Shown here: positions 2 through 17,613 of the stretch, one piece after another
How positions within the stretch are numbered: the first letter of the stretch is position 1
Layout of the letters: each line of letters begins with the position of its first letter
Assembly (NCBI GenBank): GCA_040904565.1
Contig: JBBDTI010000022.1
Location: 5,205 to 24,629, forward strand
DNA: 19,425 bases
Direction of reading: 5' to 3'
From: Rhodothermales bacterium
Lineage (GTDB): Bacteria > Bacteroidota > Rhodothermia > Rhodothermales > VXPQ01
Program-made: the position numbers and the translations under genes
The notes under the pieces: model-generated
The model's database searches: none
What the model was told of the DNA's origin: nothing
The model's input: only the letters and a program-made list of their open reading frames with translations

Positions 2-844
2 GGCAAGCGACGGAGGCGCCGCTTTACGGTAGCAGCCGTCGCGGCGGCATGCATCATCCTGTTTGGTATCGGATGGATGTTCACGCCGGCGACGGTCACG
101 ACGCCTCCGGGCGAGCAGCAGGTCGTCCGCCTGCCGGACGGGTCGGCGGTCGAGATGAACAGCGCCACGACGCTGCAGCGCTCCAGACTGTTCGCTGCCG
201 TTCCGGTTTGGCTCGGCGGCGGTCGGAGCATCCTGCTCGAGGGTGAAGCGTACTTCCGTGTGGTCCCGTCAGATGACCCCTTCGTCGTAGAAACGAACGA
301 CGCGATCGTCGAAGTCCTGGGCACCGAATTCAACGTCCGTGCGCGCAACACGCTGGACGAGGCCGGTACGGCCGTTACACTGGCCGACGGGCGCGTTCGT
401 ATATCGTCCAGATCCACAACCGATTCCGTTTCGTCGGCCCCGTCACCCACATCCGTCGTCCTCTCGAAGGCCGGAGACGCGGCTCACGTGAAATCTTCCG
501 GCACCGTAACGCGGACGGACGGCAGCGATGGCTCCTCGCTCGACCATGCATTGGCGTGGCGAAGCAGCGGCTTTGCCGCGATCGACCTTCCCCTTCGTTC
601 CGTTCTCGATGAAATGGAGCACCGCTACGACATCGAAATCTTCCCGCGAGAAGGGGTAGACGTCCGCGCTCCAATAAATGTCTTCTACCTCCGCGGTGCC
701 GAGCCCGAGCAAATACTGCGCGACATCTGCCTTTCCCAGTCCTGTGGGTACCGCGAAACCAGCCGCGGCTATGCCCTCGTAGACCGTGGCAGCGCGTCCA
801 CCGACGACGACCTGATATCGGCGACGCCCGATTCGAGTAACTAA
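2..844 (+). CDS. FecR-family anti-sigma factor / transmembrane sensor, 5'-truncated
   Basis: Frame 2 is open from position 2 and reads GKRRRRRFTVAAVAAACIILFGIGWMF (basic stretch plus TM helix) before the ORF-track start at 77, so the gene begins upstream of the window. FecR motifs: TPPGEQQVVRLPDGSAVEMNSAT, LEGEAYFRV, PFVVET..VEVLGTEFNV, VTLADGRVRI, and C-terminal LAWRSS..DLPLRSVLDEMEHRY. Confidence 0.9.
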   Translation, partial: GKRRRRRFTVAAVAAACIILFGIGWMFTPATVTTPPGEQQVVRLPDGSAVEMNSATTLQRSRLFAAVPVWLGGGRSILLEGEAYFRVVPSDDPFVVETNDAIVEVLGTEFNVRARNTLDEAGTAVTLADGRVRISSRSTTDSVSSAPSPTSVVLSKAGDAAHVKSSGTVTRTDGSDGSSLDHALAWRSSGFAAIDLPLRSVLDEMEHRYDIEIFPREGVDVRAPINVFYLRGAEPEQILRDICLSQSCGYRETSRGYALVDRGSASTDDDLISATPDSSN

Positions 845-871
845 TCGCGGGCCCGTATCTCCATCCCAACC

Positions 872-3640: not shown

Positions 3641-3765
3641 GCTACCGCTCCGGGGCCGTACCCCGCCGTCCGCTCCGCAACGAAGTAGACGTCGACGTAG
3701 TCACATCACGCCGCCCGGGTACTATAGGAATACGGAACCCATTCTATGTATTGCTGAGGCTGACC

Positions 3766-6342
3766 ATGAGACTACGCTACTACTTCTCGCTGCTCTTTGC
3801 GGCAGCAATCCTCTTCGCCATCGAACCTTCGCAGGCACAGACGTTCTTCACCGCCGAACTCACCCCGGATCAGGAAACACAGAATGTCGAGAGCAGCGGC
3901 GCCGGAACGGCCGCGCTCGTTCTTACCGATGAAGGACTCAGGTTTCTCGTCACGGTAGACAGCCTTACCGGAGACATCGCCGCCGCTCACTTTCATAACG
4001 CCGCCATGGGCGTGGACGGCGGCGTCGTCCGAGGCATCGGCGACAGCTTCGAAGGAAACACGGCATCGGGCATCTGGACCGCCTCCGACGATCAGGCGCT
4101 CACCGACGAGATGATCGCGGAGCTGTTCGCCGGAAACCTGTATCTCAACGTGCATACCGCCGAGTATGGAGCCGGAGAGCTTCGCGGCCAGGTTCTCCCC
4201 ACATCCGGCGCCGGGCTCTCCGCCCATCTCACGGCAGACCAGTCCACCGGCGACGTGACGAGCGACGGCACGGGCTCGGCATCCGTACAGCTGACGGATC
4301 AGGGCGCCCTGTATTATGTGACCGTGGACGGACTCACAGGCGACATCGCCAATGCACACTTTCATAGCAGTGCGATCGGAACGGACGGAGGGGTCGTCCA
4401 CGGCATCGCTGCCGACTTTGACGGCCAGACGGCCTTCGGCGTCTGGAGACCCGCAGACCTGACCGCGGAGCACCGCGCTTCCCTGTTGCAGGGCGAGCTG
4501 TATCTGAATATCCATACGGCGGCGTATCCCGCCGGCGAGATTCGCGGCCAGGTCCTGCCTTCTACAGGCTGGGGATTTCACGCCGACCTCGATGCGGATC
4601 AGTCGACCGGCGACGTGACGAGCGGCGGCACCGGCACGGGCACGTTTACCCTGACCGACGAGGGGCTGACGTTCCACCTTACCGTAGATGGACTGACAGG
4701 CCCCATAACCAACGCCCATTTCCACCGCGCACCCGCCGGTGAAGACGGTGGGGTCGTGCGAGGCATCATGGACGAGTTCGAGGGTAATACGTCATCCGGC
4801 ATATGGACGTCCGACGACGACCAGGCCCTCTCTGAGGAACTCGTACGCGACCTGCTTGCGGGCAACGTCTACGTCAACATCCACACGGATGCGTATCCGG
4901 CCGGCGAGATCCGCGGACAGGTGCTCCTGAGGGATGGGGCTGAGCTGACCGCCCACCTCACGTCGGACCAGGAGCCTGGCGACGTAACGAGCGAGGCGAC
5001 CGGTTCCGCCGCGCTGTCGCTGACGGACGAAGGACTGTCCTACCGGATCACGGTCAACGGACTCACAGGGCCCATCACGGGCGCACACTTCCACGAGGCA
5101 CGCATCGGCTCCAACGGAGGCGTGGTTCACGGCATCACGGACGCCTTCGACGGCGGCACGGCATCCGGTATCTGGACCTCGTCCGACGACCAACCCCTGA
5201 CGGCCGAACGCATCGAATCCCTCCTGAAGGGCGAGCTGTACCTCAACGTTCACACCGAAGCAAACTCCGGCGGAGAGATACGCGGACAGGTGCTGGTGAG
5301 TGAAGGGGCAGGACTGCGCGCCGCGCTCACGAACGAGCAGGCATCCACCGACCAGGAGGGATCGGGCACCGCGACGCTGACCCTCACGGAGCAGGGCGTA
5401 ATCTACCGTGTGACCGTGACGGGTCTCTCCGGAGACGTGACCAACGCGCACTTCCACGAAGGCGCCGCTGGCGTCAACGGAGGCGTCGTACACGGAATTT
5501 TTGACGCCTTCGATGGCAATACGGCCACCGGCGTATGGACGCCTTCAGATGACCAGCCGCTCACCGACGACATGGTGACGGCACTCGTACGCGGCGAGCT
5601 GTACCTCAACATTCACACGGCGGCGAATCCCGGCGGAGAGATCCGCGGACAGGTCGTGGCCGGCAGCGGCATCGGATCCGCCGTGCAGCTGGATCCCGGG
5701 CAGGAGGGTGCGGGCGTGGAGAGCATGGGCACCGGGACGGCTTCACTCAATCTCACGCAGGCCGGTCTATCCTACAGGCTCACGGCCACCGGCATGACGG
5801 GGACGATCAACAGCGGCCACTTCCATAATGCCCCGTTTGGAGAAAACGGCGGCGTCGTGCGTGGCATCAGCGACGATTTTGTTGACGGTACGGCCGCAGG
5901 CATCTGGCGGGCCTCCGACGATCAGGCGCTGACGACCGAACTCACACGCGAGCTGCTTGCCGGCAACCTCTACCTCAATCTACATACGGCAGCTTATCCG
6001 GCCGGCGAGATTCGCGGCCAAGTACGCCCGGGGAATGTCGTCTCGACTGCGATCGAACCCGCGTCGGACGAGCTGCCGAATTTATTCCGCCTCGAGCAGA
6101 ACTACCCCAACCCCTTCAACCCGTCCACGACGGTTGAATTCGCAATGACGGAGTCGACCCACGCACTGCTCGAAGTGTACGACGTCGTGGGTCGCCAGGT
6201 CACGACCCTGATCGACGGCGTCATGCCGGCGGGTGAATACCAGGTCCGTTTCGATGGGGCGGATCTGCCGAGCGGCGTCTATTTCTACCGGCTTTCGGCA
6301 GGTAGCCGGCAGGCAACCCGATCCATGCTGCTGTTGAAATAG
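3766..6342 (+). CDS. Secreted protein with six tandem CHRD domains and a C-terminal T9SS type A sorting domain
   Basis: The ATG at 3766 gives a clean signal peptide (MRLRYYFSLLFAAAILFAIEPSQA|Q). Six units each contain HFH..GGVV[RH]GI..[LV]Y[LV]N[VIL]HT..GE[IL]RGQV, the CHRD signature. The C-terminus FRLEQNYPNPFNPSTTVEF..LEVYDVVGRQV..LPSGVYFYRL..MLLLK is a typical T9SS sorting domain. Confidence 0.88.
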   Translation: MRLRYYFSLLFAAAILFAIEPSQAQTFFTAELTPDQETQNVESSGAGTAALVLTDEGLRFLVTVDSLTGDIAAAHFHNAAMGVDGGVVRGIGDSFEGNTASGIWTASDDQALTDEMIAELFAGNLYLNVHTAEYGAGELRGQVLPTSGAGLSAHLTADQSTGDVTSDGTGSASVQLTDQGALYYVTVDGLTGDIANAHFHSSAIGTDGGVVHGIAADFDGQTAFGVWRPADLTAEHRASLLQGELYLNIHTAAYPAGEIRGQVLPSTGWGFHADLDADQSTGDVTSGGTGTGTFTLTDEGLTFHLTVDGLTGPITNAHFHRAPAGEDGGVVRGIMDEFEGNTSSGIWTSDDDQALSEELVRDLLAGNVYVNIHTDAYPAGEIRGQVLLRDGAELTAHLTSDQEPGDVTSEATGSAALSLTDEGLSYRITVNGLTGPITGAHFHEARIGSNGGVVHGITDAFDGGTASGIWTSSDDQPLTAERIESLLKGELYLNVHTEANSGGEIRGQVLVSEGAGLRAALTNEQASTDQEGSGTATLTLTEQGVIYRVTVTGLSGDVTNAHFHEGAAGVNGGVVHGIFDAFDGNTATGVWTPSDDQPLTDDMVTALVRGELYLNIHTAANPGGEIRGQVVAGSGIGSAVQLDPGQEGAGVESMGTGTASLNLTQAGLSYRLTATGMTGTINSGHFHNAPFGENGGVVRGISDDFVDGTAAGIWRASDDQALTTELTRELLAGNLYLNLHTAAYPAGEIRGQVRPGNVVSTAIEPASDELPNLFRLEQNYPNPFNPSTTVEFAMTESTHALLEVYDVVGRQVTTLIDGVMPAGEYQVRFDGADLPSGVYFYRLSAGSRQATRSMLLLK
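3847..6024 (+). repeat. Six diverged intragenic repeats of about 120-123 codons (CHRD units)
   Basis: GE[IL]RGQV codons start at 4174, 4534, 4903, 5272, 5635 and 6004, giving periods of 360, 369, 369, 363 and 369 nt, all in frame. Some DNA identity remains, e.g. gcctccgacgatcaggcgct at 4081 and 5911. Confidence 0.9.
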
Positions 6343-6373: not shown

Positions 6374-6415
6374 AAACACGGCCGTCCGCACTACCGCGGC
6401 GGCCGTGTTTTCTTT
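6374..6415 (+). terminator. Rho-independent terminator after the CHRD gene, possibly bidirectional
   Basis: aaacacggccg(t)ccgc-actacc-gcggcggccgtgttt forms a 15-bp stem with one bulge, followed by tcttt. It sits between convergent genes. Confidence 0.8.
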
Positions 6416-6455
6416 ACGGCCGTCCGGTTCGAACGATGTCGTCCAGAACCGGCGT

Positions 6456-7097
6456 CTATTTTTCGTAGGCCCGCGCGAGTTCGTCGTACATGGCCGCACC
6501 GATCAGCAAGCTGAGCGCTCCGGTAAATACGATGCCGACGATGAAGAACGCGAGTCCGAGGAGGTTGAGCCCTACGAGCGCCAGCGCGACCAGAAAAATC
6601 GCGCCGCGGTGTCCCTCCGTCATCGCCCACGCCTTCTGCAGGGTGTCGATGACGCCGAGATCGTCGTCCAGAACGAGAAACATCGCAGGCATCAGCGCGA
6701 CGGCTACGTAGACGCCCGGCGCGACGAGCAGGGCGAACCCGACGATCATCATCACGGAATACAGGACGAACACCCCGAAACTTCGACCGAACTCGCGAAA
6801 GCCGAGAAACATCTCGCCGAGATCGGGCTCTTCATCGCGTATCAGCCGCAAGGCGAACATGTACACGCCCGCCGTTACGGGCCCCGCGATCGCGTACATT
6901 AGGATCTGGCCGAAATCGAAGAACCAGCCGCTCCGATCCCAGAGTACGCCGCCACCTGTCAGCAGGCTGTAGAGAATGAACACGGCGATCATGAGTCCCA
7001 TGTGCTCTTTGAAGACCCGCCATCCGCGGGTGAACAGCGATCGAACGTCCAGGTCCGGTTCACGTACAACTCCTGGGTCACGTAACATTTCGGCCAT
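6456..7097 (-). CDS. Integral membrane protein, DUF975/YciC-like
   Basis: The ATG at 7097 is preceded by a GGAAGG SD-like sequence. About five hydrophobic helices, with the family-like pattern LFTRGWRVFKEH, GPVTAGVY, DLGEMFLGF, GFALLVAPGVY, GVIDTLQKAWAMTEGH. Confidence 0.7.
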   Translation of the reverse strand: MAEMLRDPGVVREPDLDVRSLFTRGWRVFKEHMGLMIAVFILYSLLTGGGVLWDRSGWFFDFGQILMYAIAGPVTAGVYMFALRLIRDEEPDLGEMFLGFREFGRSFGVFVLYSVMMIVGFALLVAPGVYVAVALMPAMFLVLDDDLGVIDTLQKAWAMTEGHRGAIFLVALALVGLNLLGLAFFIVGIVFTGALSLLIGAAMYDELARAYEK

Positions 7098-7175: not shown

Positions 7176-7366
7176 TAAGGTCTGCCCGGCCCGCTGTCGC
7201 GCTGCATCGTAACGACGTCCGATCTGTCGCAACTTAACGGGTGCGGAGCGCAGGACAGATGGTTCATTTCACATTATACGGACGTTCGCTCGACATGGAT
7301 GCGCTCCATAGCCAAATCGCTGTCTCCCGTTCATTTCCCCTCTCACACCACGCAATAGCGACGACC

Positions 7367-8233
7367 ATGCCACGACGATATTCCGGCCCGCTCTTACTTC
7401 TGTTCGCGGTCCTCGCAATAGGATGCGGAAACCCCGACACGTCGACGGAAGATGGCGTTTCACAGCGCGTGGCCGAAACCGAAGTGCGTCTGAACGCAAC
7501 CGAAGGGGGCGCACTTCTGCTCGAAGCCATCGACGCGCACGGAGGCCTCGAGGCCTGGTACGCGGCGCCGACGAGCTCCTACACCTGGGAATACGCGAAT
7601 GAGCCCGCCGACCTTCAATTTAAGTCGTTCCTCGTGGCGGACAATGAGACGCGCCGCGTCTATCACGATCTGCTGACCGTGGGGGCCTATGGGAATCCGC
7701 GGCCTGTCGAGGCGCGGTTCGCGTGGACCGGCGAGGACGCATGGATGTACCCCGACTCGATCGAATCGGTCAATCCGCGATTCTGGGCAACAACCGGATA
7801 CTATTTCGAGCAGATCCCCTTCATCCTCTCAGACCCCGGCACGTTCCATGAGCGAATGGCCGACGAAGAGCTCGACGGAGAGATGCACGACGTGGTCCGC
7901 GTGACGTTCGGTCAGGGCGTCGGCGACTCGCCCGGCGACGCCTATACGCTGCTGCTCGACAAAGAAACCGGCCTGGTGAACGCTATCCGGTATACGGTGA
8001 CCTATGGACGCGATCCCGACCCCGATGCCACGCCCTCGGAGACGCTGTTCTATTATGAGGACTACGTGACGGTCGACGGGCTCACCGTAGCCACGCACTT
8101 CATGGGATACGATGCCGAAGAGATGACGTTCAAGAATGAAGCCTGGGCCGACTCCATCTCCTTCCGCCGGCGCTTCGATCCCTCGCGGCTCGAGGCACCC
8201 GATGGGGCCCGGTTCGTTCCAGCGCCCAATTAA
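7367..8233 (+). CDS. Lipoprotein, DUF6503-like (possibly LolA-like fold)
   Basis: The ATG at 7367 gives MPRRYSGPLLLLFAVLAIG|C, with a lipobox. The N-terminal motif LLLEAIDAHGGLEAW and YYFEQIPFILSDPG resemble DUF6503. Acidic, beta-rich mature part; ends 25 nt before the ATPase. Confidence 0.65.
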   Translation: MPRRYSGPLLLLFAVLAIGCGNPDTSTEDGVSQRVAETEVRLNATEGGALLLEAIDAHGGLEAWYAAPTSSYTWEYANEPADLQFKSFLVADNETRRVYHDLLTVGAYGNPRPVEARFAWTGEDAWMYPDSIESVNPRFWATTGYYFEQIPFILSDPGTFHERMADEELDGEMHDVVRVTFGQGVGDSPGDAYTLLLDKETGLVNAIRYTVTYGRDPDPDATPSETLFYYEDYVTVDGLTVATHFMGYDAEEMTFKNEAWADSISFRRRFDPSRLEAPDGARFVPAPN

Positions 8234-8258: not shown

Positions 8259-10394
8259 ATGTCGGCCACTCCACATCACGTCGAAGTACCGGTCTCCGGA
8301 ATGGACTGTGCCGGGTGCGCGCGTACGGTCCAACAGGCCATTAGCGCCGTGCCGGGTGTTTCTTCCGCGGAGGTGCTTCTCACCGCCGAGAAGGCGATCG
8401 TTGACCTAGACGACACGGCCCACATCGAGCAGATTCACCGTGCCATCGAAGCGGCCGGCTACGGCGTCCCGGAAACCGATCCTCGGCCAACGGACCGGGA
8501 GGACGACGTGACCGATGATTCGGCCGACGACGTCTCCAGGCAAATCCTGCGTCTGTTTGGATCGATCTTCGCCGCCGTGCTGGTCGTGGTCGTGGCGGGG
8601 GAGGTTCTCGGACTGCTGGACTGGCTCGTCGACGCCGTTCCGTGGTACGTCGGCGCGCTGGCCGTGGCCGGACTCGGTTATCCCGTCTTCAAGCAGGTCG
8701 TCCGGTCGACCCTCCGAGGCCATATCATCGCGCACACGCTGATGGCCGTCGGAGCCGGTGCGGCACTGATTGCGGGACAGTGGGTGACGGCCTTGATCGT
8801 CGTCTTCTTTATGCGGATGGGCGACTACGCGGAACGGTTCACGACCGAGCAGACGCGCGAATCGGTCCGCTCGCTGACCCGCATGGCGCCGCAGACGGCG
8901 CGCGTTGTGTGGGAGGATGAGGAACGTACGGTAGCCGTCGACGAGGTCGAGCCCGATGACATCGTCGTCGTCCGACCGGGAGAACGCATTCCGGTTGACG
9001 GGATCGTGGTGGCCGGACACGCCACCGTGGATCAGTCCGCCATTACCGGAGAAAGCATGCCCGTAGAAGCGGTACCTGGCCGAAAGGTCTTCGCGGCCAC
9101 CATCGCCGGTGGAGGCTCACTGCGCGTCCGATCGACGGCAGCCGGTCGCGATTCGACGTTCGGCCGGGTCATCGAAATGGTGCAGCAGGCTGAACGCCAT
9201 CGCGGAGCCGTGCAGCGGTATGCGGATCGCTTTTCAACGTACTACCTGCCCGTCGTGGCTGCCATCGCGGGAGCTACCTACCTCTTCGGCGGTGGACTCA
9301 TGGCGACCGTGGCCGTGCTCGTCGTCGCCTGCTCGTGCGCCTTCGCGCTCGCCACGCCCGCCGCGATACTTGCCTCCGTGGGTGCGGCGGCGAAGCAGGG
9401 CCTGCTCATCAAAGGGGGCAAGTATGTCGAGGCACTGTCTCGGGCGGATGTGGTGCTGGTCGACAAAACGGGCACGCTCACGCTCGGCCGACCCGAGATC
9501 AGAGAGGTGACGACGCTCAACGGCTTCAGCGAGGACGAACTGATTCGACTCGGCGCATCCGCCGAAAGGTATTCCGAACATCCACTGGCGGACGCCGTCC
9601 GCCGGCTGGCTGCCGATCGCGGCATCGAGCTGGCCGAGCCGGAGGATTTTCACGCCGTGCCGGGAGCCGGCGTGCACGCACGGGTGAACGGCATGGACGT
9701 CCGAGTAGGCTCCGAGCGCGTCGCCGGCGTCGCGGCCGCCGCAGCCTCGACGCTGGAATTGGCGACGCGTACCGGCACGCGTCTATATATCGATGTGGAT
9801 GGGCAGGCCGGCGGCGTACTGTCCGCGGCGGACGCCGATCGAGAAGAGGTCCCCGTCGCCCTCGATGCGCTCCGGCAAATGGGCATCGAGCACATCGAAC
9901 TCCTTACCGGTGATAGGCAGGACGTGGCCGCGGAGCTGGCCTCCAGGCTGGGCATCACCTTCAAGGCCGAGCTGCTGCCGGAGGACAAGATCGAGATCGT
10001 GCGACACTACCAGGGGCACGGACACACCGTCGTCATGATCGGCGACGGCGTCAACGATGCACCCGCCCTCGCGCAGGCCGACGTCGGCATCGCCATGTCG
10101 CGTGGAACCGACGTGGCCACGGAATCGGCCCACGTAGCACTCATGCGGGACGACTGGTCCCTCGTCCCCAGCCTCTTCCGCATTGCACGCCGAACGATGG
10201 GCGTGGTGCGACTCAACATCGGGTTTACGGCCGCATACAACGTGGTCGGACTCGCTCTGGCCGCCTTCGGCTTCCTGCCGCCGATTTACGCCGCCGCCGC
10301 ACAATCCCTCCCCGACATCGGGATCATGGCCAACTCAGCCCGTCTCATACGCCAGGATGACGGCCGCTCGCGATCTCACGCACCGGTCACCTGA
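8259..10394 (+). CDS. Heavy-metal P1B-type ATPase with N-terminal HMA domain and CSC membrane motif (P1B-7-like)
   Basis: GMDCAGC HMA domain, eight predicted TM helices, TGES, ACSCAFALATP (CSC at 9330-9338), DKTGTLT, SEHPLA, TGD, GDGVNDAPALA, YN (10236-10241) and QSLPD (10302-10316). Confidence 0.92.
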   Translation: MSATPHHVEVPVSGMDCAGCARTVQQAISAVPGVSSAEVLLTAEKAIVDLDDTAHIEQIHRAIEAAGYGVPETDPRPTDREDDVTDDSADDVSRQILRLFGSIFAAVLVVVVAGEVLGLLDWLVDAVPWYVGALAVAGLGYPVFKQVVRSTLRGHIIAHTLMAVGAGAALIAGQWVTALIVVFFMRMGDYAERFTTEQTRESVRSLTRMAPQTARVVWEDEERTVAVDEVEPDDIVVVRPGERIPVDGIVVAGHATVDQSAITGESMPVEAVPGRKVFAATIAGGGSLRVRSTAAGRDSTFGRVIEMVQQAERHRGAVQRYADRFSTYYLPVVAAIAGATYLFGGGLMATVAVLVVACSCAFALATPAAILASVGAAAKQGLLIKGGKYVEALSRADVVLVDKTGTLTLGRPEIREVTTLNGFSEDELIRLGASAERYSEHPLADAVRRLAADRGIELAEPEDFHAVPGAGVHARVNGMDVRVGSERVAGVAAAAASTLELATRTGTRLYIDVDGQAGGVLSAADADREEVPVALDALRQMGIEHIELLTGDRQDVAAELASRLGITFKAELLPEDKIEIVRHYQGHGHTVVMIGDGVNDAPALAQADVGIAMSRGTDVATESAHVALMRDDWSLVPSLFRIARRTMGVVRLNIGFTAAYNVVGLALAAFGFLPPIYAAAAQSLPDIGIMANSARLIRQDDGRSRSHAPVT

Positions 10395-13300
10395 TCCTCC
10401 GTAAACTGCATGCGAAGCCGGCGGCGCTGCACGAGCGCGTACGCTGCCGGAATGACGACAAGCGTCAGAACCGTCGAGCTGACGAGACCGCCGACCATAG
10501 GCGTCGCGATCCGACGCATCACCTCGCTGCCCGTGCCGGTTCCCAGCATGATCGGCATCAAACCGATCAGCGTCGTGAAGACCGTCATCAACTTCGGCCG
10601 GACGCGATCTACGGCTCCCTCTTCCAGGGCCGCGTTCAGCATCGATCGGGAGGTCAGGCGCCCCTCGCGGCGGTACCGCTCGACGGCCTCGTTAAGGTAC
10701 ACCTGCATGACCACTCCCGTCTCCGCGGCAAGTCCGGCCACGGCGATGAAGCCGACGCCGACGGCGATGCTCATGTTGAAGTCGAGGGCGGCCATAAGCC
10801 ACACGGCCCCCACCACGGCGAACGGAAGCGTCGCCATGAGGAGCGACGACTCCCACACATTCTTAAAGTGGAGGAAGAGGAGCAAAAAGATGATCGCCAG
10901 CGTAATCGGCACGAGGACCCGCAGCCGCTCGTTGGCGCGCTCCATGTATTCGTACTGCCCGCTCCACGTGATCGCGTATCCGGGGGGAAGCTCGACCTGA
11001 TCGGCCACGATGCGACGCGCCCGCTGCACGTACGTGCCGATGTCCGTCCCCTGATTCAGATCGACGTACACCCAGGCATTCGGACGAGCATTTTCGCTCT
11101 TGATCATGGGCGGACCGCCTTCGATGGTGAAGCTCGCCAGCTGTCCAAGCGGTATCTGTGCCCCCGTCGACGTCGGCACGAGGACCTGCCGCAGTGCGGG
11201 CACGTCGTCGCGCAGCGCCTGCGGGTATCGGACGTTTACGGGAAAGCGGTCGAGTCCCTCTACGGTCGTCGTCACGTTCATACCTCCGACCGCACTGGTG
11301 ATCACATCCTGCACGTCACCCGTCGTCAGACCGTGCCGCGCGGCCTCCCGCCGGTCAATGTCTATATCCAGAAACGAGCCGCCCATGACGCGTTCGGCGT
11401 AGACCGACATCGTGCCCTCGAGCGGCCGAAGCGCCTGCTCCACCTCTTCGCCCAACCGCTCGAGCACAGCCAGGTCCGTCCCGGCGATCTTGACCCCTAC
11501 GGGTGTCTTGATGCCCGTTGCCAGCATGTCGGTCCGCGTCTTGATGGGCATGGTCCACGCGTTCGTCAGCCCGGGGATCTGGATGGCCGCGTTCATTTCG
11601 GACACGAGACCGTCCCACGTCATCCCCTCTCTCCACTGGTCTTCCGGCTTCAGGATGATGATCGTTTCGATCATCGTCATCGGTGCCGGATCCGTAGCCG
11701 TCTCCGCCCGTCCGATCTTGCCGAACACGGACCCGACCTCCGGAAACGACTTGATGATGCGGTCGGTCTGCTGGAGCAGCTCCCTTGCCTTCTGGGACGA
11801 CACGCCCGGCAGGGTCGTCGGCATGTACAGCATGTCGCCTTCGTTCAACGGCGGCATGAATTCCGATCCGATCTGCGGGAACGGCACGTACGCCTGCCCG
11901 AACAGCATGCGCTGCAGGGGAAGTGCCGTAAGGACGAACACCAGCCCGGCTGCTACGATGACGGATACCGGACGGCGCAGCGTGGCCCGGATCACGGGCC
12001 GATACACGTAGATGAAGAATCGCGCTATCGGATTCTCGTCCTCTCGCCGAATTTTTCCTTTGATGAAGACGACCATCAGGGCCGGAATGAGCGTCACCGC
12101 GAGCAGCGCCGCCGACGCCATAGCAAACGTCTTCGTAAACGCCAGCGGGGTGAACATGCGCCCCTCGACCTGCTGCAGCGTGAACACCGGCAGGAACGAT
12201 ACGGTGACAATGAGCAGAGAGAAGAACAGGCTCGGACCGACCTCCTTCGCCGCGTCCACGACGGCCCTCATGCGGAGATTCGGTGGAATATGCTCTCCGA
12301 TCGACGCATCACGTAGCCGCAGGCGCTCGAGGTGCTTGTGGGCGTTTTCCACCATTACCAGGGACGCATCCACCATCACTCCGATGGCGATCGCGATGCC
12401 GCCGAGGCTCATGATGTTGGCATTGATCCCCAACAGGTACATGACCCCGAGCGACATGAGGATGCCGATCGGGACCGTGATAAGGGCCACGAAAGCACTT
12501 CGCGCGTGCAGCAGAAAGAGGATCACGATTAGCGTGACGACCAGCAGCTCTTCCCAGATCTGGGTCGTGAGGGTGGAGACGGCTCGATCGATCAATCCGG
12601 ATCGATCGTATTCCGTAACGACGTGCACGCCCTCAGGCAGGCTTGCTTCGAGCTCGGAGAGGCGCGTCTTCACGGCTTCGATGACCTTCCGGGCATTCTC
12701 GCCGTAGCGCATGACGACGATCCCGCCCACGACTTCGCCCTCTCCGTTCTTCTCGGCGATGCCGCGCCGCAGATCGGGTCCGAGCTGGACGCGCGCCACG
12801 TCGCCGATCGTTACGGTCGTGCCGGACGCCGTCTTCAGCGGGATACCTCGAATATCATCGATTCCGCCCAGATACCCCCTTCCGCGAACGATATATTCGC
12901 GTTCGCCCATCTCGAGCAGGCGCCCGCCGACGTCCGCGTTCGATCGCTGAATCTGCATCTTGACGTGGCTCAGGGGGATACCGTGTGCAGAGAGCCGCTG
13001 CGGATCGACGACGACCTGGTACTGCTTCACGAACCCGCCCACCGTGGCGACCTCGCTTACGCCCTCGACCGCCTGCAGCTCGTACTTCAGAAAGAAGTCC
13101 TGTATCGTCCGCAGTTCCGCCAGATCGTGGGCTCCCGTCGTGTCGACCACGCTGTATTGAAATACCCAACCCACGCCGGTGGCATCCGGCCCCAGCGCAG
13201 GCCTCACCCCATCGGGAAGACGATCCGTTACGAAATTCAGGTACTCGAGAACGCGACTCCGCGCCCAGTACATGTCGGTTCCGTCTTCAAATATCACGTA

Positions 13301-13582
13301 TACGAACGACGTTCCGAACATAGAATACCCTCGAACGGTCTTGGCAAAGGGCACCGAGAGCATGGCCGTCGTGAGGGGATAGGTAACCTGCTCCTCGACG
13401 ACCTGCGGCCCCTGTCCGGGGTAGTCCGTCTTGATGATAACCTGAACGTCCGACAGGTCGGGGATCGCGTCGATGGGCGTGTTCACCGTGGCCCAGATGC
13501 CTCCCACCGCCAAGAGGAGCGTCAATAGAATGACGAGCAGCCGGTTTGTCGCGCTCCACTCGATGATTCGCTGCAGCATCAT
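10376..13582 (-). CDS. cusA: CusA/SilA-type Cu(I)/Ag(I) efflux RND permease
   Basis: IDAIPDLSDVQVII, VEEQVTYPL, YWARSRVLEYL, LGPDATGVGWV, NIMSLGGIAIAIG.MVDA, RVRPKLMT. The Met triad falls at residues 587/637/686 (LYMP, MTMIET, TDMLATG), the same 50/49 spacing as E. coli CusA M573/M623/M672. The start overlaps the cusB stop (ATGATG). Confidence 0.93.
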   Translation of the reverse strand: MMLQRIIEWSATNRLLVILLTLLLAVGGIWATVNTPIDAIPDLSDVQVIIKTDYPGQGPQVVEEQVTYPLTTAMLSVPFAKTVRGYSMFGTSFVYVIFEDGTDMYWARSRVLEYLNFVTDRLPDGVRPALGPDATGVGWVFQYSVVDTTGAHDLAELRTIQDFFLKYELQAVEGVSEVATVGGFVKQYQVVVDPQRLSAHGIPLSHVKMQIQRSNADVGGRLLEMGEREYIVRGRGYLGGIDDIRGIPLKTASGTTVTIGDVARVQLGPDLRRGIAEKNGEGEVVGGIVVMRYGENARKVIEAVKTRLSELEASLPEGVHVVTEYDRSGLIDRAVSTLTTQIWEELLVVTLIVILFLLHARSAFVALITVPIGILMSLGVMYLLGINANIMSLGGIAIAIGVMVDASLVMVENAHKHLERLRLRDASIGEHIPPNLRMRAVVDAAKEVGPSLFFSLLIVTVSFLPVFTLQQVEGRMFTPLAFTKTFAMASAALLAVTLIPALMVVFIKGKIRREDENPIARFFIYVYRPVIRATLRRPVSVIVAAGLVFVLTALPLQRMLFGQAYVPFPQIGSEFMPPLNEGDMLYMPTTLPGVSSQKARELLQQTDRIIKSFPEVGSVFGKIGRAETATDPAPMTMIETIIILKPEDQWREGMTWDGLVSEMNAAIQIPGLTNAWTMPIKTRTDMLATGIKTPVGVKIAGTDLAVLERLGEEVEQALRPLEGTMSVYAERVMGGSFLDIDIDRREAARHGLTTGDVQDVITSAVGGMNVTTTVEGLDRFPVNVRYPQALRDDVPALRQVLVPTSTGAQIPLGQLASFTIEGGPPMIKSENARPNAWVYVDLNQGTDIGTYVQRARRIVADQVELPPGYAITWSGQYEYMERANERLRVLVPITLAIIFLLLFLHFKNVWESSLLMATLPFAVVGAVWLMAALDFNMSIAVGVGFIAVAGLAAETGVVMQVYLNEAVERYRREGRLTSRSMLNAALEEGAVDRVRPKLMTVFTTLIGLMPIMLGTGTGSEVMRRIATPMVGGLVSSTVLTLVVIPAAYALVQRRRLRMQFTEDQVTGA

Positions 13583-14988
13583 TCTACCTCACTGTCGTTG
13601 ACATCGGAGGACTCCACGTTCATCGGAGCGTCGCTCGAGTTCATCTCGCCGTGATCGTGTCCGGCCATCGCACCGACGGCACTTCGGAGACGCGCCTCCG
13701 AATCGATCAGGAACTGAGCGCTCGTAACGACGCGCTCGTTGCCCTGGAGTCCACTGAGGATTTGCGTACGTCCAGACGCTTCGAAACCCGTCACGACGTC
13801 CGCCGGCATGAACCGACCTTCGCCGAGCGCGAGGATGACGACCTCTCGATCGCCCGTCCGGATCACGGCTTCGTCGGGTACTACAGGTGTGGCCGGCATC
13901 CTACCGCCTTCCAGCCGGACCGTGGCGTACATGCCCGGCTTGAGGGGGGCGTGATGGCCTCCCTGCAGCGTGATGCGAGCCCGGGCCGTGCGCGTGTCGG
14001 TATCCAGCATGTGATAGACGTGGTCGACGCGTCCGCGAAACGTGGCGCCGGGATCGTAGGGAAGTTCCACCGTGGCCTCCGTACCGGCTCTCACCCAGCC
14101 GACGTCCTGTTCGTAGACATCCACCATCAGCCAGATGGTGTCGATGTCGATGATGCGCATGAGAGACGCACCGGCCCGTACGTGCTGCCCCTCGGTCACC
14201 TGCTTGTCCATCACCTCCCCGGATGCCGGCGCGAAGTACCGTATCGTCCGCTTCGGTTCACGGGTCGTTTCGATCTCGCGGATCTGTTCCTCCGTAAGGT
14301 CCCAGTAGGCGAGGCGCCGGCGTGCCGCCCGCAGCAGCCGCCGGGCGTCGTCGGCCGCCGGTGTGCCCTCGAGGCGTTCCAGGTTTCGAAGCGCGAGAAG
14401 GACCTCTTCCTGCGTCGCCACGAGATCCGGGCTGTACAGGTCGAGCAGCGGTTCGCCCTTCGTCACGATCGCCCCATCGAAGTCGGCGTGGAGCACCTCG
14501 ACCCAGCCATCGACCTTCAGGGAGACCGTGTGCGCGCCCTGCTCGTCCATCTCGAACCGGCCCGTCGTTCGCAGGGATCGCTGCAGCGACTCGACCGTGA
14601 CCGGCGCCGTACGCACGCCGATGTTCTGGAGCGTGACGGGATCGATGCGGACGGTGCCGTCGTCCAGCTGGTCGACCTGCACGGGGATGAGGTCCATCCC
14701 GCAGATGGGACACTGCCCGGGTTCGTCCCGGACGATCCATGGGTGCATGCCGTCCTGATACACGACCCCGTCGCCGTCCCGGTCGGCGGCGGCGAGTCCG
14801 CCTGCACCAGCCTGCTGCGGCGCCGCCCCCGTCGCCGCATGACCGACCGAACCCTCCGCCGCCTCGGTACCCGCCGCTCCTTCCGGCCCCGTGTTTTCAT
14901 ACAGTACGAGCACGGTGAGCCCTATCGTTACGATGATGAGCAGGGCCGCAGACGCGGTGATGACGGTTATCTTCTTCGTGGTATTCAT
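13579..14988 (-). CDS. cusB: CusB-like RND periplasmic adaptor with N-terminal heavy-metal-binding domain
   Basis: N-terminal TM anchor, YQDGMHP..PGQCPICGMDLIP metal-binding domain, IDPVTLQNIGVRT, GWVEVL, LYSPDLVATQEE, LKPGMYA, VVTSAQFLIDSE, and a His/Met tail MAGHDHGEM. The start at 14988 is 4 nt after the tolC stop; 15009 is an alternative. Confidence 0.88.
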   Translation of the reverse strand: MNTTKKITVITASAALLIIVTIGLTVLVLYENTGPEGAAGTEAAEGSVGHAATGAAPQQAGAGGLAAADRDGDGVVYQDGMHPWIVRDEPGQCPICGMDLIPVQVDQLDDGTVRIDPVTLQNIGVRTAPVTVESLQRSLRTTGRFEMDEQGAHTVSLKVDGWVEVLHADFDGAIVTKGEPLLDLYSPDLVATQEEVLLALRNLERLEGTPAADDARRLLRAARRRLAYWDLTEEQIREIETTREPKRTIRYFAPASGEVMDKQVTEGQHVRAGASLMRIIDIDTIWLMVDVYEQDVGWVRAGTEATVELPYDPGATFRGRVDHVYHMLDTDTRTARARITLQGGHHAPLKPGMYATVRLEGGRMPATPVVPDEAVIRTGDREVVILALGEGRFMPADVVTGFEASGRTQILSGLQGNERVVTSAQFLIDSEARLRSAVGAMAGHDHGEMNSSDAPMNVESSDVNDSEVE

Positions 14989-14992
14989 GGCG

Positions 14993-16306
14993 TTATTCCA
15001 TCCGGGCATTCTGTGTACCGATGAGGTCGGAGAGGTCGTCGAGCGATGTGATGCCCAGGGCTCGTTCCAGCCGGACAGCGGCCTTCAGATAGCGGATAAG
15101 GGCATCCGCTCGGCCCGTTCGGAGCGAGAACATGGTTCGCTCGGCATCGAGGAGATTCAAGAAATCCGTGCGCCCTGTCGTATAGGCGCTCAATGTGGCC
15201 TCTACGGTCGCATCCGCCTGCGGCAGCAGCGTCCGATCGTAGAGATCCAGCGTTCGCTGCTCCTGCTGGAGGGCGTAGAGGAGATCGTCGACCCGTGTCT
15301 CGATCTCTGCCAGAAGCGCCTGGCGACGCGCGTCGATCTGACGGGAGCGGACCTCCGACTCGGCGATCCGTGCACGTTTGGAGCCTCGCTGCAGCGGCAG
15401 CTTGACGGACACGCCGACGGCCAGGGCATCCCGACCGCCCCCCATGGGCAGGGCGTCCGCTCGTGCGATGTCGAAATACGTAAGGCTGACCCCGAAGTCC
15501 GGCAGAAGCTGCTTTCGCGACAGCTCCGTTTCGGCTTCCGCTCGCACCGCCGCGGCCTCCAGTGCCGCCATTTCCGAGCGCTCCCGCACGGAGAGATCCA
15601 CGAGAGCGTCGTAGGGTACCTCCGGCAGCTCCGGCGCTACGAGCTCGGTCGTCTCGAAATGCGAGGCACTCCCCGGCTGATTCGTCAGGCGCGCGAGCTT
15701 CGCGGCCGCAGAACGCCGCCGCACCTCCAGATCCACCAGCTGCTGTGCCATCCGATTCTTCTCGACCTGTGCCTGAAGGACCGCCTGCTGGGCACCCTGA
15801 CCCACTTCGTAACGGGAGGTTGCCGCCTCCTCGAACGCCCGCAGATCGTCCCGAAACGCGAGGACCAGTTCCGTAAGCCGCTGCGCGTGGTACAGGTCGT
15901 AGTAGGCTTCCTTGGCTTCCAGAAAGAGGTCCGCGGCAAGTACGTCCGCTTCATGCCGCGTGACGTCCGCGCTGAGATCGGCCACTTCACCCTGGAGGCG
16001 AAGCTTGCCCGGATACGGAATCATCTGCTCGACGCGCCACTGGGTACGCTGTGAGCCGCGCGCCGTGAGGAGCGGTACGGGCTGGTACGTTACCCCGGCG
16101 GTCGGGTCCGGCAGGGCCGAAACCTGTGCGCGGCGAAACGCCAGCGCGTCGGCGTCGAGGCGAGCCGCAACGAGCGTGGAATTGTCACGCTCGACGGCGG
16201 CAAGCACGTCACGAAGGGTACGTGGACTCTCCTGTCCGGGCGACGATCGGGCCGAAAAGGCGAGGACTGCCGCGACGAGAAAGAGTCGCAGTGATGTAGA
16301 TGACAT
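14993..16306 (-). CDS. TolC-family outer membrane factor (CusC-like)
   Basis: Signal peptide SPG|Q, ALPDP, EQMIPYPGKL, VSVKLPL, YEVGQGAQQAVLQAQ and YTTGRTDFLNLLDAER (two OEP repeats). First gene of the C-B-A order. Confidence 0.88.
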   Translation of the reverse strand: MSSTSLRLFLVAAVLAFSARSSPGQESPRTLRDVLAAVERDNSTLVAARLDADALAFRRAQVSALPDPTAGVTYQPVPLLTARGSQRTQWRVEQMIPYPGKLRLQGEVADLSADVTRHEADVLAADLFLEAKEAYYDLYHAQRLTELVLAFRDDLRAFEEAATSRYEVGQGAQQAVLQAQVEKNRMAQQLVDLEVRRRSAAAKLARLTNQPGSASHFETTELVAPELPEVPYDALVDLSVRERSEMAALEAAAVRAEAETELSRKQLLPDFGVSLTYFDIARADALPMGGGRDALAVGVSVKLPLQRGSKRARIAESEVRSRQIDARRQALLAEIETRVDDLLYALQQEQRTLDLYDRTLLPQADATVEATLSAYTTGRTDFLNLLDAERTMFSLRTGRADALIRYLKAAVRLERALGITSLDDLSDLIGTQNARME

Positions 16307-16428
16307 GGATCTGATCCGGATCGAAAAACTGCAGACGTGCCCGCGCGGGGAAGAAGTCGCATCACGCAGGCTCGAGAGTACCCCGTAGGGTCACGGTCGG
16401 ACGGACGTCCGCCGCGTGCAGTCTGATC

Positions 16429-16986
16429 TCAGATCAGAAAGACGGAAAGATGGGCTGGAGAGAGAGGTGGGAGGGGCGGCGATCCGACCCGCGAAATAGG
16501 AATGCGCACCGTAGGAGGCCGCACTATGGCCTCGGCTACGAGCGCCGTCGTGGCCACCGGCACGACGCCCGCCTCTTCGTAGGCGAACTTTACCGGCGTG
16601 GCGGGACGGTCGAATATGGGCGACTCGAAGACGCAGCAGGATAGATTCGGCTGCGACGCATCCCCAGGAGCCGACTCGCTCGCTTCGTGGTGCATCCCAT
16701 GGCGCATCTCATTGCCCGACGCGTCGTGGTGCATCCCATGGCGCATCTCATTGCCCGGTGCTTCGTGGTGCATCGCATGGGCCGACGCGTCCACCTCACC
16801 AGGATGGTCGTCTTCGTCCGTCTCCTGATTGCAAACGGCAGCCGCCATACGGGGCTGGACAACGCACGCCGCGTGGACTACCGGCAGAATGACGAGCCAC
16901 AGCATGGCCGCGAGAGCGATGGAGGCCGCCCATCTATACGCTGCCGCTGTTTGGGCTGATCGATATGTCGCAAGGATACCTCGCAT
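16429..16986 (-). CDS. His/Met-rich exported leader-type protein with HxxC, CC and C-terminal PP motifs (DUF2946 / HYC_CC_PP-like)
   Basis: Hydrophobic segment WAASIALAAMLWLVILPVVHAAC, His/Met repeats, SCC, and the ending SPPLPPLSPAHLSVFLI*. It lies 122 nt upstream of tolC on the same strand. The start is uncertain: ATG 16986, or ATG 17070 / GTG 17073 overlapping the upstream stop. Confidence 0.65.
   Translation of the reverse strand: MRGILATYRSAQTAAAYRWAASIALAAMLWLVILPVVHAACVVQPRMAAAVCNQETDEDDHPGEVDASAHAMHHEAPGNEMRHGMHHDASGNEMRHGMHHEASESAPGDASQPNLSCCVFESPIFDRPATPVKFAYEEAGVVPVATTALVAEAIVRPPTVRIPISRVGSPPLPPLSPAHLSVFLI
16682..16780 (-). repeat. 39-bp tandem repeat, about 2.5 copies, encoding [PS]GNEMRHGMHH[DE]A
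   Basis: Units at 16682-16720 and 16721-16759, partial unit at 16760-16780. The core tcgtggtgcatcccatggcgcatctcattgcccg is identical in the two full copies. Confidence 0.93.
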
Positions 16987-17069
16987 TCGGACGCGTAACG
17001 AAACGACGGTCTCCAGGTTTCGTGCCCGCTCCCGTATCGCGTGGACATCACCGAACCCCCGGCGAAGCA

Positions 17070-17321
17070 TCACGCGGCCTGCATCCGCCGATAGACCCAG
17101 ATCAACAGCAGTCCGCCAACCACGGCGAGCATAAAGCTGCCGACGTTAAAGCCCGAGATGCCGCCCAGTCCGAAAAGCGACCCGATGAAGCCGCCCACGA
17201 CGGCACCCGCGATACCCAGAAGGATCGTTACGAACACACCGCCGGGATCGGATCCCGGCATGATCCATTTTGCGAGCGCACCGGCAATCAAGCCGAACAG
17301 GATCCAGGAGAGAATTCCCAT
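17070..17321 (-). CDS. GlsB/YeaQ/YmgE family (transglycosylase-associated) small membrane protein
   Basis: MGILSWILFGLIAGALAKWIMPGSDPGGVFVTILLGIAGAVVGGFIG..SFMLAVVGGLLLIWVYR, 83 aa. GAGGAAG SD upstream of ATG 17321. Confidence 0.9.
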   Translation of the reverse strand: MGILSWILFGLIAGALAKWIMPGSDPGGVFVTILLGIAGAVVGGFIGSLFGLGGISGFNVGSFMLAVVGGLLLIWVYRRMQAA

Positions 17322-17342
17322 GACGCTTCCTCGTAATTTGTG

Positions 17343-17348
17343 ATTGTA
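17343..17348 (-). promoter_or_regulatory. Possible -10 element (TACAAT) for the minus-strand glsB-like gene
   Basis: attgta on + reads TACAAT on -, about 21 nt upstream of the start codon in a relatively AT-rich divergent gap. No convincing -35 element. Confidence 0.3.
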
Positions 17349-17613
17349 TCGACGTGGGTCCATAAGTAACGGGATAAACGCCTGAAATAGCGTAACAGAC
17401 TCGTGCCGAATAGTGTGGATGCGGTGATCGCCGTTACATAGCCTCCTAAACTGATGGACGCGTATCGAGAATATTTCGCGGATCATTCCACCCCGATTGA
17501 AACCGTCCGATCAGACATCCTATTGAAGATGGGGGACGATGTAGCGCCGAAGCGCGACCGTCCCGCTGTCCAGTACTGGTCCCATGCCATCTATCTCCTC
17601 GAAACGGACGCCC

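Follow-up and report, generated by a model that had tools for sequence, protein, structure and literature searches.

A conserved open reading frame upstream of a CusA-type efflux operon in Rhodothermales: a candidate cis-acting leader whose stop codon pairs with the next start site

To our knowledge, metal sensing by a nascent exported peptide has so far been worked out for two proteins of the DUF2946 type, both from Proteobacteria. One is CutF of Rhodobacter capsulatus, for which two reports describe a stem-loop that masks cutO and is opened by a ribosome (PMC9973294; bioRxiv 10.1101/2025.02.05.636593). The other is CruR (Bp2923) of Bordetella pertussis, where 45 residues lie between a CxxC motif and RAPP, which is itself three residues from the stop; CruR acts by Rho-dependent termination, and copper relieves the arrest (Roy et al. 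2022, PMC9426467). CutF-like open reading frames (ORFs) have already been reported in Bacteroidota (40% of proteomes after normalisation), with OEP as the commonest downstream neighbour, and CzcI is grouped with them as a protein without the C-terminal proline motif (Ozturk et al. 2023, PMC9973294). Toeprinting has revealed arrest peptides of Bacteroidota whose stalled ribosome has the stop codon in its A site (PMC10987492). Here we analyse an ORF, hereafter the leader, that precedes a tolC-cusB-cusA-type copper/silver efflux operon in a 19,425-nucleotide (nt) stretch of a Rhodothermales genome (contig JBBDTI010000022.1, the window), and propose that it may regulate this operon in cis.

A first-pass annotation, made from the letters alone, had described an ORF with a hydrophobic segment ending in HAAC, a second Cys, a His/Met block, SCC and a Pro-rich tail, directly upstream of efflux genes. 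All of these elements are present in the 185-residue translation, and 122 nt separate the ORF from an OEP/TolC-like gene that is followed by CusB-like and CusA-like genes (Table 1). As with DUF2946-type proteins, the ORF thus directly precedes genes of metal homeostasis and is separated from them by an intergenic region of some length. Its hydrophobic segment terminates in PVVHAAC (H38 and C41), the second Cys (C52) follows 11 residues on, and the tail after SCC (C117-C118) reads RVGSPPLPPLSPAHLSVFLI-stop. In alignments A1 and A3, C41 is invariant, and W30, H38 and C52 are nearly so. An AlphaFold2 (AF2) model built with the family alignment contains a helix at residues 4–52, where the 10-residue blocks covering residues 11–40 have a mean predicted local distance difference test (pLDDT) score of 85–94. 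It is confident only for this N-terminal helix, with no fold beyond it and an overall mean pLDDT of 57.9. An N-terminal export signal or Nin-Cout anchor, another DUF2946-type trait, is thus predicted for the leader. A lipoprotein reading of H-A-A-C was dropped, as position −3 is, by eye, a nearly invariant His or Gln and not Leu.

The leader has longer in-frame starts (GTG 17073 and ATG 17070), and the homologous start is ATG 16986, where MRGILATYR of the window corresponds to MLTALRTYR of the relatives. The sequence GTGATG at 17068–17073 places ATG 17070 so that it overlaps the TGA of an upstream Transgly_assoc gene by one base; this ATG, 28 codons ahead of the homologous one, offers an alternative start, possibly coupled to the upstream gene. 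Close database homologues (P0002–P0004, P0016, P0017) are called from an internal Met (MLW/MFW..., for example MLWLV..., 145 residues), so that the basic residues at the N-terminus are lost along with half the membrane segment; these calls probably represent a systematic start mis-annotation. Two of these homologues, P0002 and P0003, are 87–91% identical to the window protein and carry one 39-nt repeat unit fewer. By sequence, the His/Met repeat, regarded in the first pass as a large insert that could buffer metal, is a recent tandem duplication of 39 nt whose copy number is polymorphic among relatives more than 87% identical, and not a trait of the family. Because the repeat is recent and polymorphic, a metal-buffer role of the His/Met block is speculative.

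Single-sequence searches recover a mere handful of relatives, and a locus search with alignment A2 gave three genome loci and one metagenome locus. Profile A3 matches 46 of 285 genomes of the same order, and 35 of the 172 that are of high quality. The window genome contains a single member of the family. Its members share a common plan: a short basic N-terminus (…LRTYR…), a membrane segment, P-[LV]-V-[HQ]-x-x-C and another Cys, then a variable His-rich stretch, CC, a variable stretch and a conserved end. The next gene encodes an OEP protein in 29 of the 31 other loci, the remaining two having a multicopper oxidase and a truncated fragment. Spacing to the next gene is mostly 73–130 nt, and larger where an insertion is present. 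The nearest ESM Atlas clusters are unnamed or named ‘putative copper resistance protein’ (0.95), and one cluster with DUF2946 on 23% of its members scores 0.93; these are leads only. No structural match was found there at a template-modelling (TM) score of 0.5.

Two distant relatives come from low-GC genomes. L024 (genome G090) ends in SPPSLFLLHSALLI-stop and lies upstream of an OEP gene, and L025 (G278) ends in SYSPPLLFLANESLLI-stop, lies upstream of a multicopper oxidase and has CDC in place of CC, with a gene that is ArsR-like by eye and an HMA-domain gene upstream. These two cases, with weak helix support, suggest a wider Bacteroidota family. A homologue search from the L024 ORF gave two proteins, neither with an informative name.

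The constraints on the peptide are concentrated at its end and around its Cys residues. Among 49 distinct sequences, the distance from CC to the C-terminus is 61–70 residues (median 67), while the linker from the first Cys to CC varies between 30 and 100 residues. Counts over 50 distinct sequences give an extreme C-terminal consensus of L-x-x-x-F-L-I-stop, with F/L-L-I-stop at the very end: Leu at −2 occurs in all 50, Phe at −3 and Ile at −1 in 45 each, Leu or Phe at −6 in 44, Leu at −7 in 37, and Pro at −13/−14 in 30–31. Selection was assessed with Nei-Gojobori windows in an 11-sequence genus group and in a divergent group of six sequences that includes the window. In the larger group, the ratio of nonsynonymous to synonymous differences per site (pN/pS) is 0.05 at xxCAM (QTTCAM), 0.11 over the last 10 codons and 0.19 at PPCC, and 0.4–1.1 in most other windows; the non-coding extension upstream of the start scores about like the weakly constrained windows. 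Within SVFLI, Ser is encoded by UCC or UCU and Val by GUC, GUG, GUA or GUU; since these codons vary synonymously, selection there acts on the peptide. The extreme C-terminus and the Cys motifs thus appear to be under strong purifying selection, whereas the rest of the chain appears near-neutral and is predicted to be unfolded. Because full-length relatives keep the motif order in 46 of 285 genomes and motif windows have a pN/pS of 0.05–0.19, these comparisons identify the leader as a real gene and not a chance frame.

The second conserved feature is a long-range helix in the mRNA, in which the last codons and stop codon of the leader pair with the 9–11 nt directly before the AUG of the tolC-like gene. 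In the window, the junction has a minimum free energy (MFE) of −67.5 kcal/mol (z −3.06), and none of 200 shuffles was as stable. The MFE fold pairs UCUGAUCUG with CGGAUCAGA and encloses three internal hairpins. The same arrangement was obtained in the seven Rhodothermales loci that were folded and is weaker in the distant L024 and L025. Most of the 32 loci searched for duplexes have a 3′ arm that ends 0–3 nt ahead of the AUG. Fixed windows (the last 12 nt plus the stop codon, against −18 to +2 of the AUG) gave a median duplex energy of −12.8 kcal/mol; compared with 200 control windows from the downstream coding region, 15 of the 32 loci beat all controls and 19 fall within the best 1%. Duplex support is poorest for L054, L062, L058, L024, L025, L053 and L052.

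Covariation was tested on a 24-locus MAFFT alignment with an 11-pair helix, using 500 shuffles and a partner slid by 1–3 columns. The helix cells are paired in 81.7% of cases, compared with 23–46% with the partner slid, and double-sided changes occur in six of the 11 pairs (15 cells). On four of five covariation measures, none of the 500 shuffles reaches the observed value; the fifth, ‘further standard pair types’, is reached by 28. Compensation covers changed last codons (AUC, AAU, CGU) as well as stop codons (UGA, UAG): UUU/UUC pairs with GAA/GGA, AAU-UGA with UCA-AUU, CGU-UGA with UCA-ACG, and AUU-UAG with CUA-AAU. Covarying pairing between leader and downstream start, a mark of start-site masking that is opened by upstream translation, was thus found. 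L043, L047 and L048 have spacers of 152–323 nt owing to a palindromic insertion, yet their 3′ arm still lies beside the AUG. The palindromic element (of the GGATACTCTGAT...ATCAGAGTATCC type) was seen in spacers of L043, L044, L047 and L048, all of one genus; in L047 it contains a further insert of about 170 nt, and the L044 locus is truncated by the contig end. It looks like a small mobile inverted-repeat element.

Shine-Dalgarno-led initiation has been described as atypical in Bacteroidota. Here, the 3′ arm of 16 of the 32 loci contains AGGA, 4–6 nt ahead of the AUG, and two more loci have AAGG 7–10 nt ahead of it; the window has neither. The accessibility of the start site was modelled in 31 loci, with ribosome footprints treated as unpaired stretches. 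The modelled median is 0.30 in the free mRNA (0.20 in the window), rises to 0.49 (0.47) with a ribosome on the stop codon, and is 0.30 (0.22) with a ribosome 12 codons upstream, at the PP position. The first-pass annotation had placed the key arrest at the PP codons. Because PP is missing in eight of 49 distinct members and a ribosome at this position does not open the modelled helix, the control point is likely to be the end of the leader ORF, where F-L-I-stop is the most conserved element, and not PP. For an arrest at the stop codon, a Pro some 12 residues short of the C-terminus would be located far inside the exit tunnel.

Beside these observations we place a mechanism in which four elements are inferred: the topology of export, the binding of metal, an arrest at the stop codon and the direction of regulation. 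In the free mRNA, the leader end and stop codon would be paired with the nucleotides upstream of the tolC-like AUG, so that the start is masked; a ribosome at the end of the leader ORF would melt the helix and free the start, and the overlapping cusB and cusA genes would be translated next by translational coupling. The N-terminal membrane segment would insert the leader peptide co-translationally. With the ribosome at the stop codon, the Cys4/His cluster (HxxC, C, CC) would be positioned across the membrane, at a fixed distance of 61–70 residues from the peptidyl-transferase centre. How long the ribosome dwells at the leader end would depend on the C-terminal peptide and on the state of the cluster: Cu(I) or Ag(I) bound there could alter folding or pulling force, and the peptide P...L-L-x-x-x-F-L-I-stop might then hold the terminating ribosome for longer, so that the start stays open and more pump is made. 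That metal prolongs the arrest and induces the pump is assumed by analogy with CutF. We lean towards this mechanism as a whole, from start-masking helix through metal-dependent arrest to pump induction. The copper-sensing leader of the first pass is thus retained in its architecture and position, which parallel CutF and CruR, and is joined by independent evidence for control in cis, namely the covarying helix, the fixed CC spacing and the conserved extreme C-terminus; its DUF2946 kinship and its PP site are given up.

Several points weigh against this reading. The helix alone is equally well explained by constitutive translational coupling. The duplexes of L025, L024, L054 and L062, the most distant members, are within the control range in the fixed 15/20-nt windows, and the modelled opening is moderate (0.30 to 0.49) and absent or reversed in four of 31 loci (L035, L038, L052, L054). 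In the six-sequence group the selection contrast is much weaker, with a pN/pS of 0.41 in the C-terminal window and 0.60 in the CC window, and synonymous differences are large there (pS mostly 0.45–0.83). The conservation of F-L-I may be partly at the RNA level, as the last three codons lie within the helix. No proven arrest peptide showed homology to the leader, and a hydrophobic F-L-I C-terminus is no known arrest motif. At 150–200 residues the ORF is long for a leader and, with its four conserved Cys, may give a stable product with its own function. Finally, no RNA run matching the locus is listed, and of the nine metagenome DNA runs listed, four contain at least half of the sampled words.

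The most serious rival, and one compatible with a leader role, regards the leader as a stable accessory protein of the pump that is anchored in the membrane and binds metal in the periplasm, like a CusF-type chaperone or buffer, with the helix serving stoichiometric coupling and no regulated arrest. Four conserved Cys in a His-rich sequence (His/Met-rich in the window), a length of 150–200 residues, an operon without a CusF gene and a helix suited to plain translational coupling all fit such a protein. Its periplasmic part, however, is mostly near-neutral (pN/pS 0.4–1.1) and predicted unfolded, with a His-rich linker of 30–100 residues and a polymorphic Met/His repeat; the fixed CC-to-stop distance and the invariant extreme C-terminus would be left unexplained, and CusF_Ec domains are encoded at two other places in the genome (contigs C74 and C84). 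We consider this explanation unlikely, although by some way the strongest of the rivals.

Transcriptional attenuation of the CruR kind is improbable. Here the dwell of the ribosome at the leader end would govern Rho-dependent or intrinsic termination in the 122-nt spacer, for which there is the precedent of CruR itself (PMC9426467). The spacer is long and structured, and contains one weak terminator-like hairpin with a U-run at 16331–16344, but such hairpins are at chance level (one found, 1.1 expected). Moreover, the conserved covarying element specifically pairs AUG-proximal nucleotides, and the spacer interior is unconserved and tolerates insertions.

Tail-specific proteases and DegS-type PDZ domains recognise apolar C-termini, and L-x-x-x-F-L-I is found strictly at the free C-terminus of the leader. 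The hydrophobic end could then be a tag for a periplasmic PDZ protease or partner, a degron or signalling ligand, with proteolysis or binding in place of arrest; CutF is reported to be quickly degraded after export (PMC9973294). This reading stands marginally below attenuation in our estimate, since it leaves both the helix between the leader stop codon and the tolC-like start and the fixed CC-to-end distance unexplained, and no protease or PDZ gene was found among the window ORFs scanned. Least credible, to the point of being negligible, is a chance open frame with only the RNA element functional: GC-rich DNA does contain many long spurious ORFs, but 46 genomes preserve the frame together with its length and the order of its motifs, with synonymous variation at conserved residues and the low motif-window pN/pS (0.05–0.19) given above.

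The leader family is, by sequence comparison, not a detectable member of DUF2946, contrary to what the first-pass annotation had expected. The Pfam model (PF11162) scores 12.1 bits (E 0.34) against the window protein, well under the gathering cut-off of 23.7 bits; 14 relatives gave two faint matches (E 0.19 and 3.4), none at the cut-off. Pfam and NCBIfam scans of the window protein and these 14 relatives found no family at threshold. A six-frame search of the window's own genome with PF11162 gave no match at E≤1. Comparison of A3 by hhalign with A4, an alignment of nine DUF2946-like ORFs from the phylum, gave a probability of 9.4% over 21 columns, covering the membrane helix only. The first pass had also pointed to HYC_CC_PP-type models, a name that appears in no paper of the literature searched. 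Against NCBIfam (release 20), the window protein gave no match at E≤1, and four of the 14 relatives have weak matches to unrelated models (E≤10).

The motifs differ as well. In place of CxxC or CxxxC, the family has an invariant adjacent CC together with HxxC and a single Cys, and neither R[AG]PP nor a PPP motif occurs at its C-terminus. PP is present 11–25 residues before the end in 41 of 49 distinct members, at about 47–57 residues from CC, and is absent in the other eight; the DUF2946 spacing of about 45 residues from Cys motif to RAPP is not found. A PF11162 search of 301 genomes of the phylum revealed borderline-to-significant ORFs in 22, four of them over the cut-off. In their canonical form these consist of CxxC, 43–47 residues, R[AG]PP, 2–5 residues and the stop, in line with the pattern published for CruR (PMC9426467); nine of the 10 ORFs examined have the 43–47 spacing, and L068 lacks CxxC. 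Loci L064–L075 are canonical DUF2946-like upstream ORFs, with a membrane segment, a His-rich stretch, CxxC and R[AG]PP. Three of them belong to the window's order, and both kinds therefore coexist there. Strong stop-to-start pairing was seen in only three of the eight L064–L075 loci that have a downstream ORF. The leader may still work like a DUF2946 protein.

The assignment of the downstream genes to a copper/silver pump is supported by a 200-residue portion of the RND (resistance-nodulation-division) protein, which matches E. coli CusA with E 8e-56, compared with 1.6e-11 for ZneA. The pump has Met at three aligned positions, which we take to be the CusA metal site. The GlsB/YeaQ-like Transgly_assoc gene (ORF 17070–17486) lies 84 nt upstream of the leader on the same strand. 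Convergent with the cusA-like gene is the gene of a CopA-like P-type ATPase (8259–10394, plus strand) that has an HMA domain at its N-terminus; a 330-residue ORF (7241–8233) with no Pfam match precedes it. The window ORFs scanned include no recognisable gene for a two-component or MerR-type regulator; ORFs 6405–6902 and 7241–8233 have no Pfam match. Farther along, an 863-residue protein with six CHRD domains and a type IX secretion system (T9SS) C-terminal sorting domain (3751–6342, plus strand) follows a FecR-like gene and a TonB-dependent-receptor-like gene with a CarboxypepD_reg domain (77–3640, plus strand). Pfam and NCBIfam scans found no CusF gene in the operon; two CusF_Ec-domain ORFs lie outside it in the same genome, on contigs C74 (15680–15889) and C84 (46282–46467). 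Rfam gave no match within 16200–17200, and a scan for sigma-70-type promoters, which is uninformative for this phylum, gave no site.

Table 1. Features of the leader ORF, its junction with the next gene and the efflux operon (positions in the window).
Feature	Position	Strand	Description	Basis
Leader ORF	16429..16986	−	ATG 16986, stop TGA 16429-16431, 185 residues	Translation, family conservation
N-terminal hydrophobic membrane/export segment (predicted)	16876..16932	−	Residues ~19-37, Arg residues before	Sequence, AF2
H38-x-x-C41...C52 motif	16831..16875	−	Outer end of membrane segment	Alignments A1, A3
His/Met block	16681..16780	−	39-nt tandem repeat, 2.6 copies, 91% matches	
Invariant CC	16633..16638	−	C117-C118, 67 residues before C-terminus	Alignments
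Conserved C-terminal segment	16432..16482	−	SPPLPPLSPAHLSVFLI, candidate arrest peptide	Position counts, 50 distinct sequences
5′ arm of long-range helix	16430..16438	−	UCUGAUCUG, last codons and first two stop-codon bases	
3′ arm of long-range helix	16310..16318	−	CGGAUCAGA, ending 3 nt before tolC-like AUG (16306)	
Structured intergenic region	16307..16428	−	122 nt, enclosed by helix	Folding
OEP/TolC-like outer-membrane factor	14993..16306	−	Start 122 nt downstream of leader	PF02321, E 5e-35
CusB-like adaptor with N-terminal HMBD	13579..15009	−	Overlaps OEP gene by 17 nt	HlyD_D23, E 7e-66
CusA/CzcA-family RND pump	10376..13582	−	Overlaps cusB-like gene by 4 nt	TIGR00914, 1231 bits

If the proposed mechanism is true, the same logic arose with another peptide motif and another RNA device in Rhodothermales, and possibly in the wider Bacteroidota. 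The system is compact, consisting of a single helix for which compensatory variants occur in nature, a single motif at the terminus and a single rule of spacing, and it bears on how a ligand outside the membrane changes the behaviour of the ribosome at a stop codon. It also flags the start mis-annotation of homologues and a putative, unrecognised regulator of copper/silver efflux operons. More tentatively, and leaning slightly against the stronger claim, we suggest that the leader could represent an undescribed class of transmembrane metal-sensing arrest peptides: unrelated in sequence to DUF2946, stalling on P...L-L-x-x-x-F-L-I-stop, and with its own stop codon placed by a helix on the start of an RND operon, so that Cu/Ag bound in the periplasm, at a Cys4/His site 61–70 residues behind the active centre of the ribosome, would set pump translation without a protein regulator. 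In the literature searched on CutF-like ORFs, DUF2946 and copper, and Bacteroidota arrest peptides, the protein lists of PMC9973294 being uncompared, we found no description of the F-L-I-stop motif, the 61–70-residue rule or the helix between stop codon and start site. Novelty is limited in another respect. The first pass had seen the ORF as an FCB-lineage counterpart controlling an RND pump; CutF-like ORFs of Bacteroidota are, however, already known, with OEP genes as their commonest downstream neighbour, and some members of the leader family could pass the filters used in that study (fewer than 150 residues, PP in the last 15 residues, a signal peptide; PMC9973294).

Among known systems, CutF is the closest in design (PMC9973294; bioRxiv 10.1101/2025.02.05.636593). 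Both are leading ORFs of copper-detoxification operons with an N-terminal Sec-type export signal, a predicted one in the leader, and four Cys, two upstream and two in the Cys motif. Both have a conserved C-terminal sequence of stalling type, the stalling being assumed by analogy for the leader, and an RNA structure that hides the ribosome-binding site of the next gene and is opened by the leader ribosome, as is proposed here. There is no detectable sequence homology, and the leader has CC where CutF has CxxxC and ends in L-x-x-x-F-L-I-stop where CutF has PPP. Masking by the leader would involve a long-range stop-codon helix over a spacer of about 73–130 nt, in contrast to the local downstream stem-loop of CutF, and the controlled gene would be an RND outer-membrane factor instead of a multicopper oxidase. 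With CruR, the DUF2946 prototype, the leader shares a small exported or anchored ORF heading a copper-related operon, a long intergenic region and a fixed distance from Cys motif to C-terminal motif (PMC9426467); it differs in having CC, 61–70 residues to the stop and no RAPP. CzcI of Cupriavidus metallidurans is likewise a small exported ORF directly upstream of a heavy-metal RND operon of C-B-A order (czcCBA), a likeness of description and position (PMC9973294). The arrest peptides of Bacteroidota share a conserved motif at the very C-terminus and a stop codon that is part of the stalling site; they end in Pro and regulate sec genes or tna, whereas the leader ends in F-L-I, a candidate motif (PMC10987492). 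The RNA logic is also that of the coat-replicase interaction of phage MS2, where upstream translation breaks a long-range pairing that hides a downstream start; the leader differs in that its own stop-codon region forms the 5′ arm and that metal-ligand motifs are encoded in the upstream cistron.

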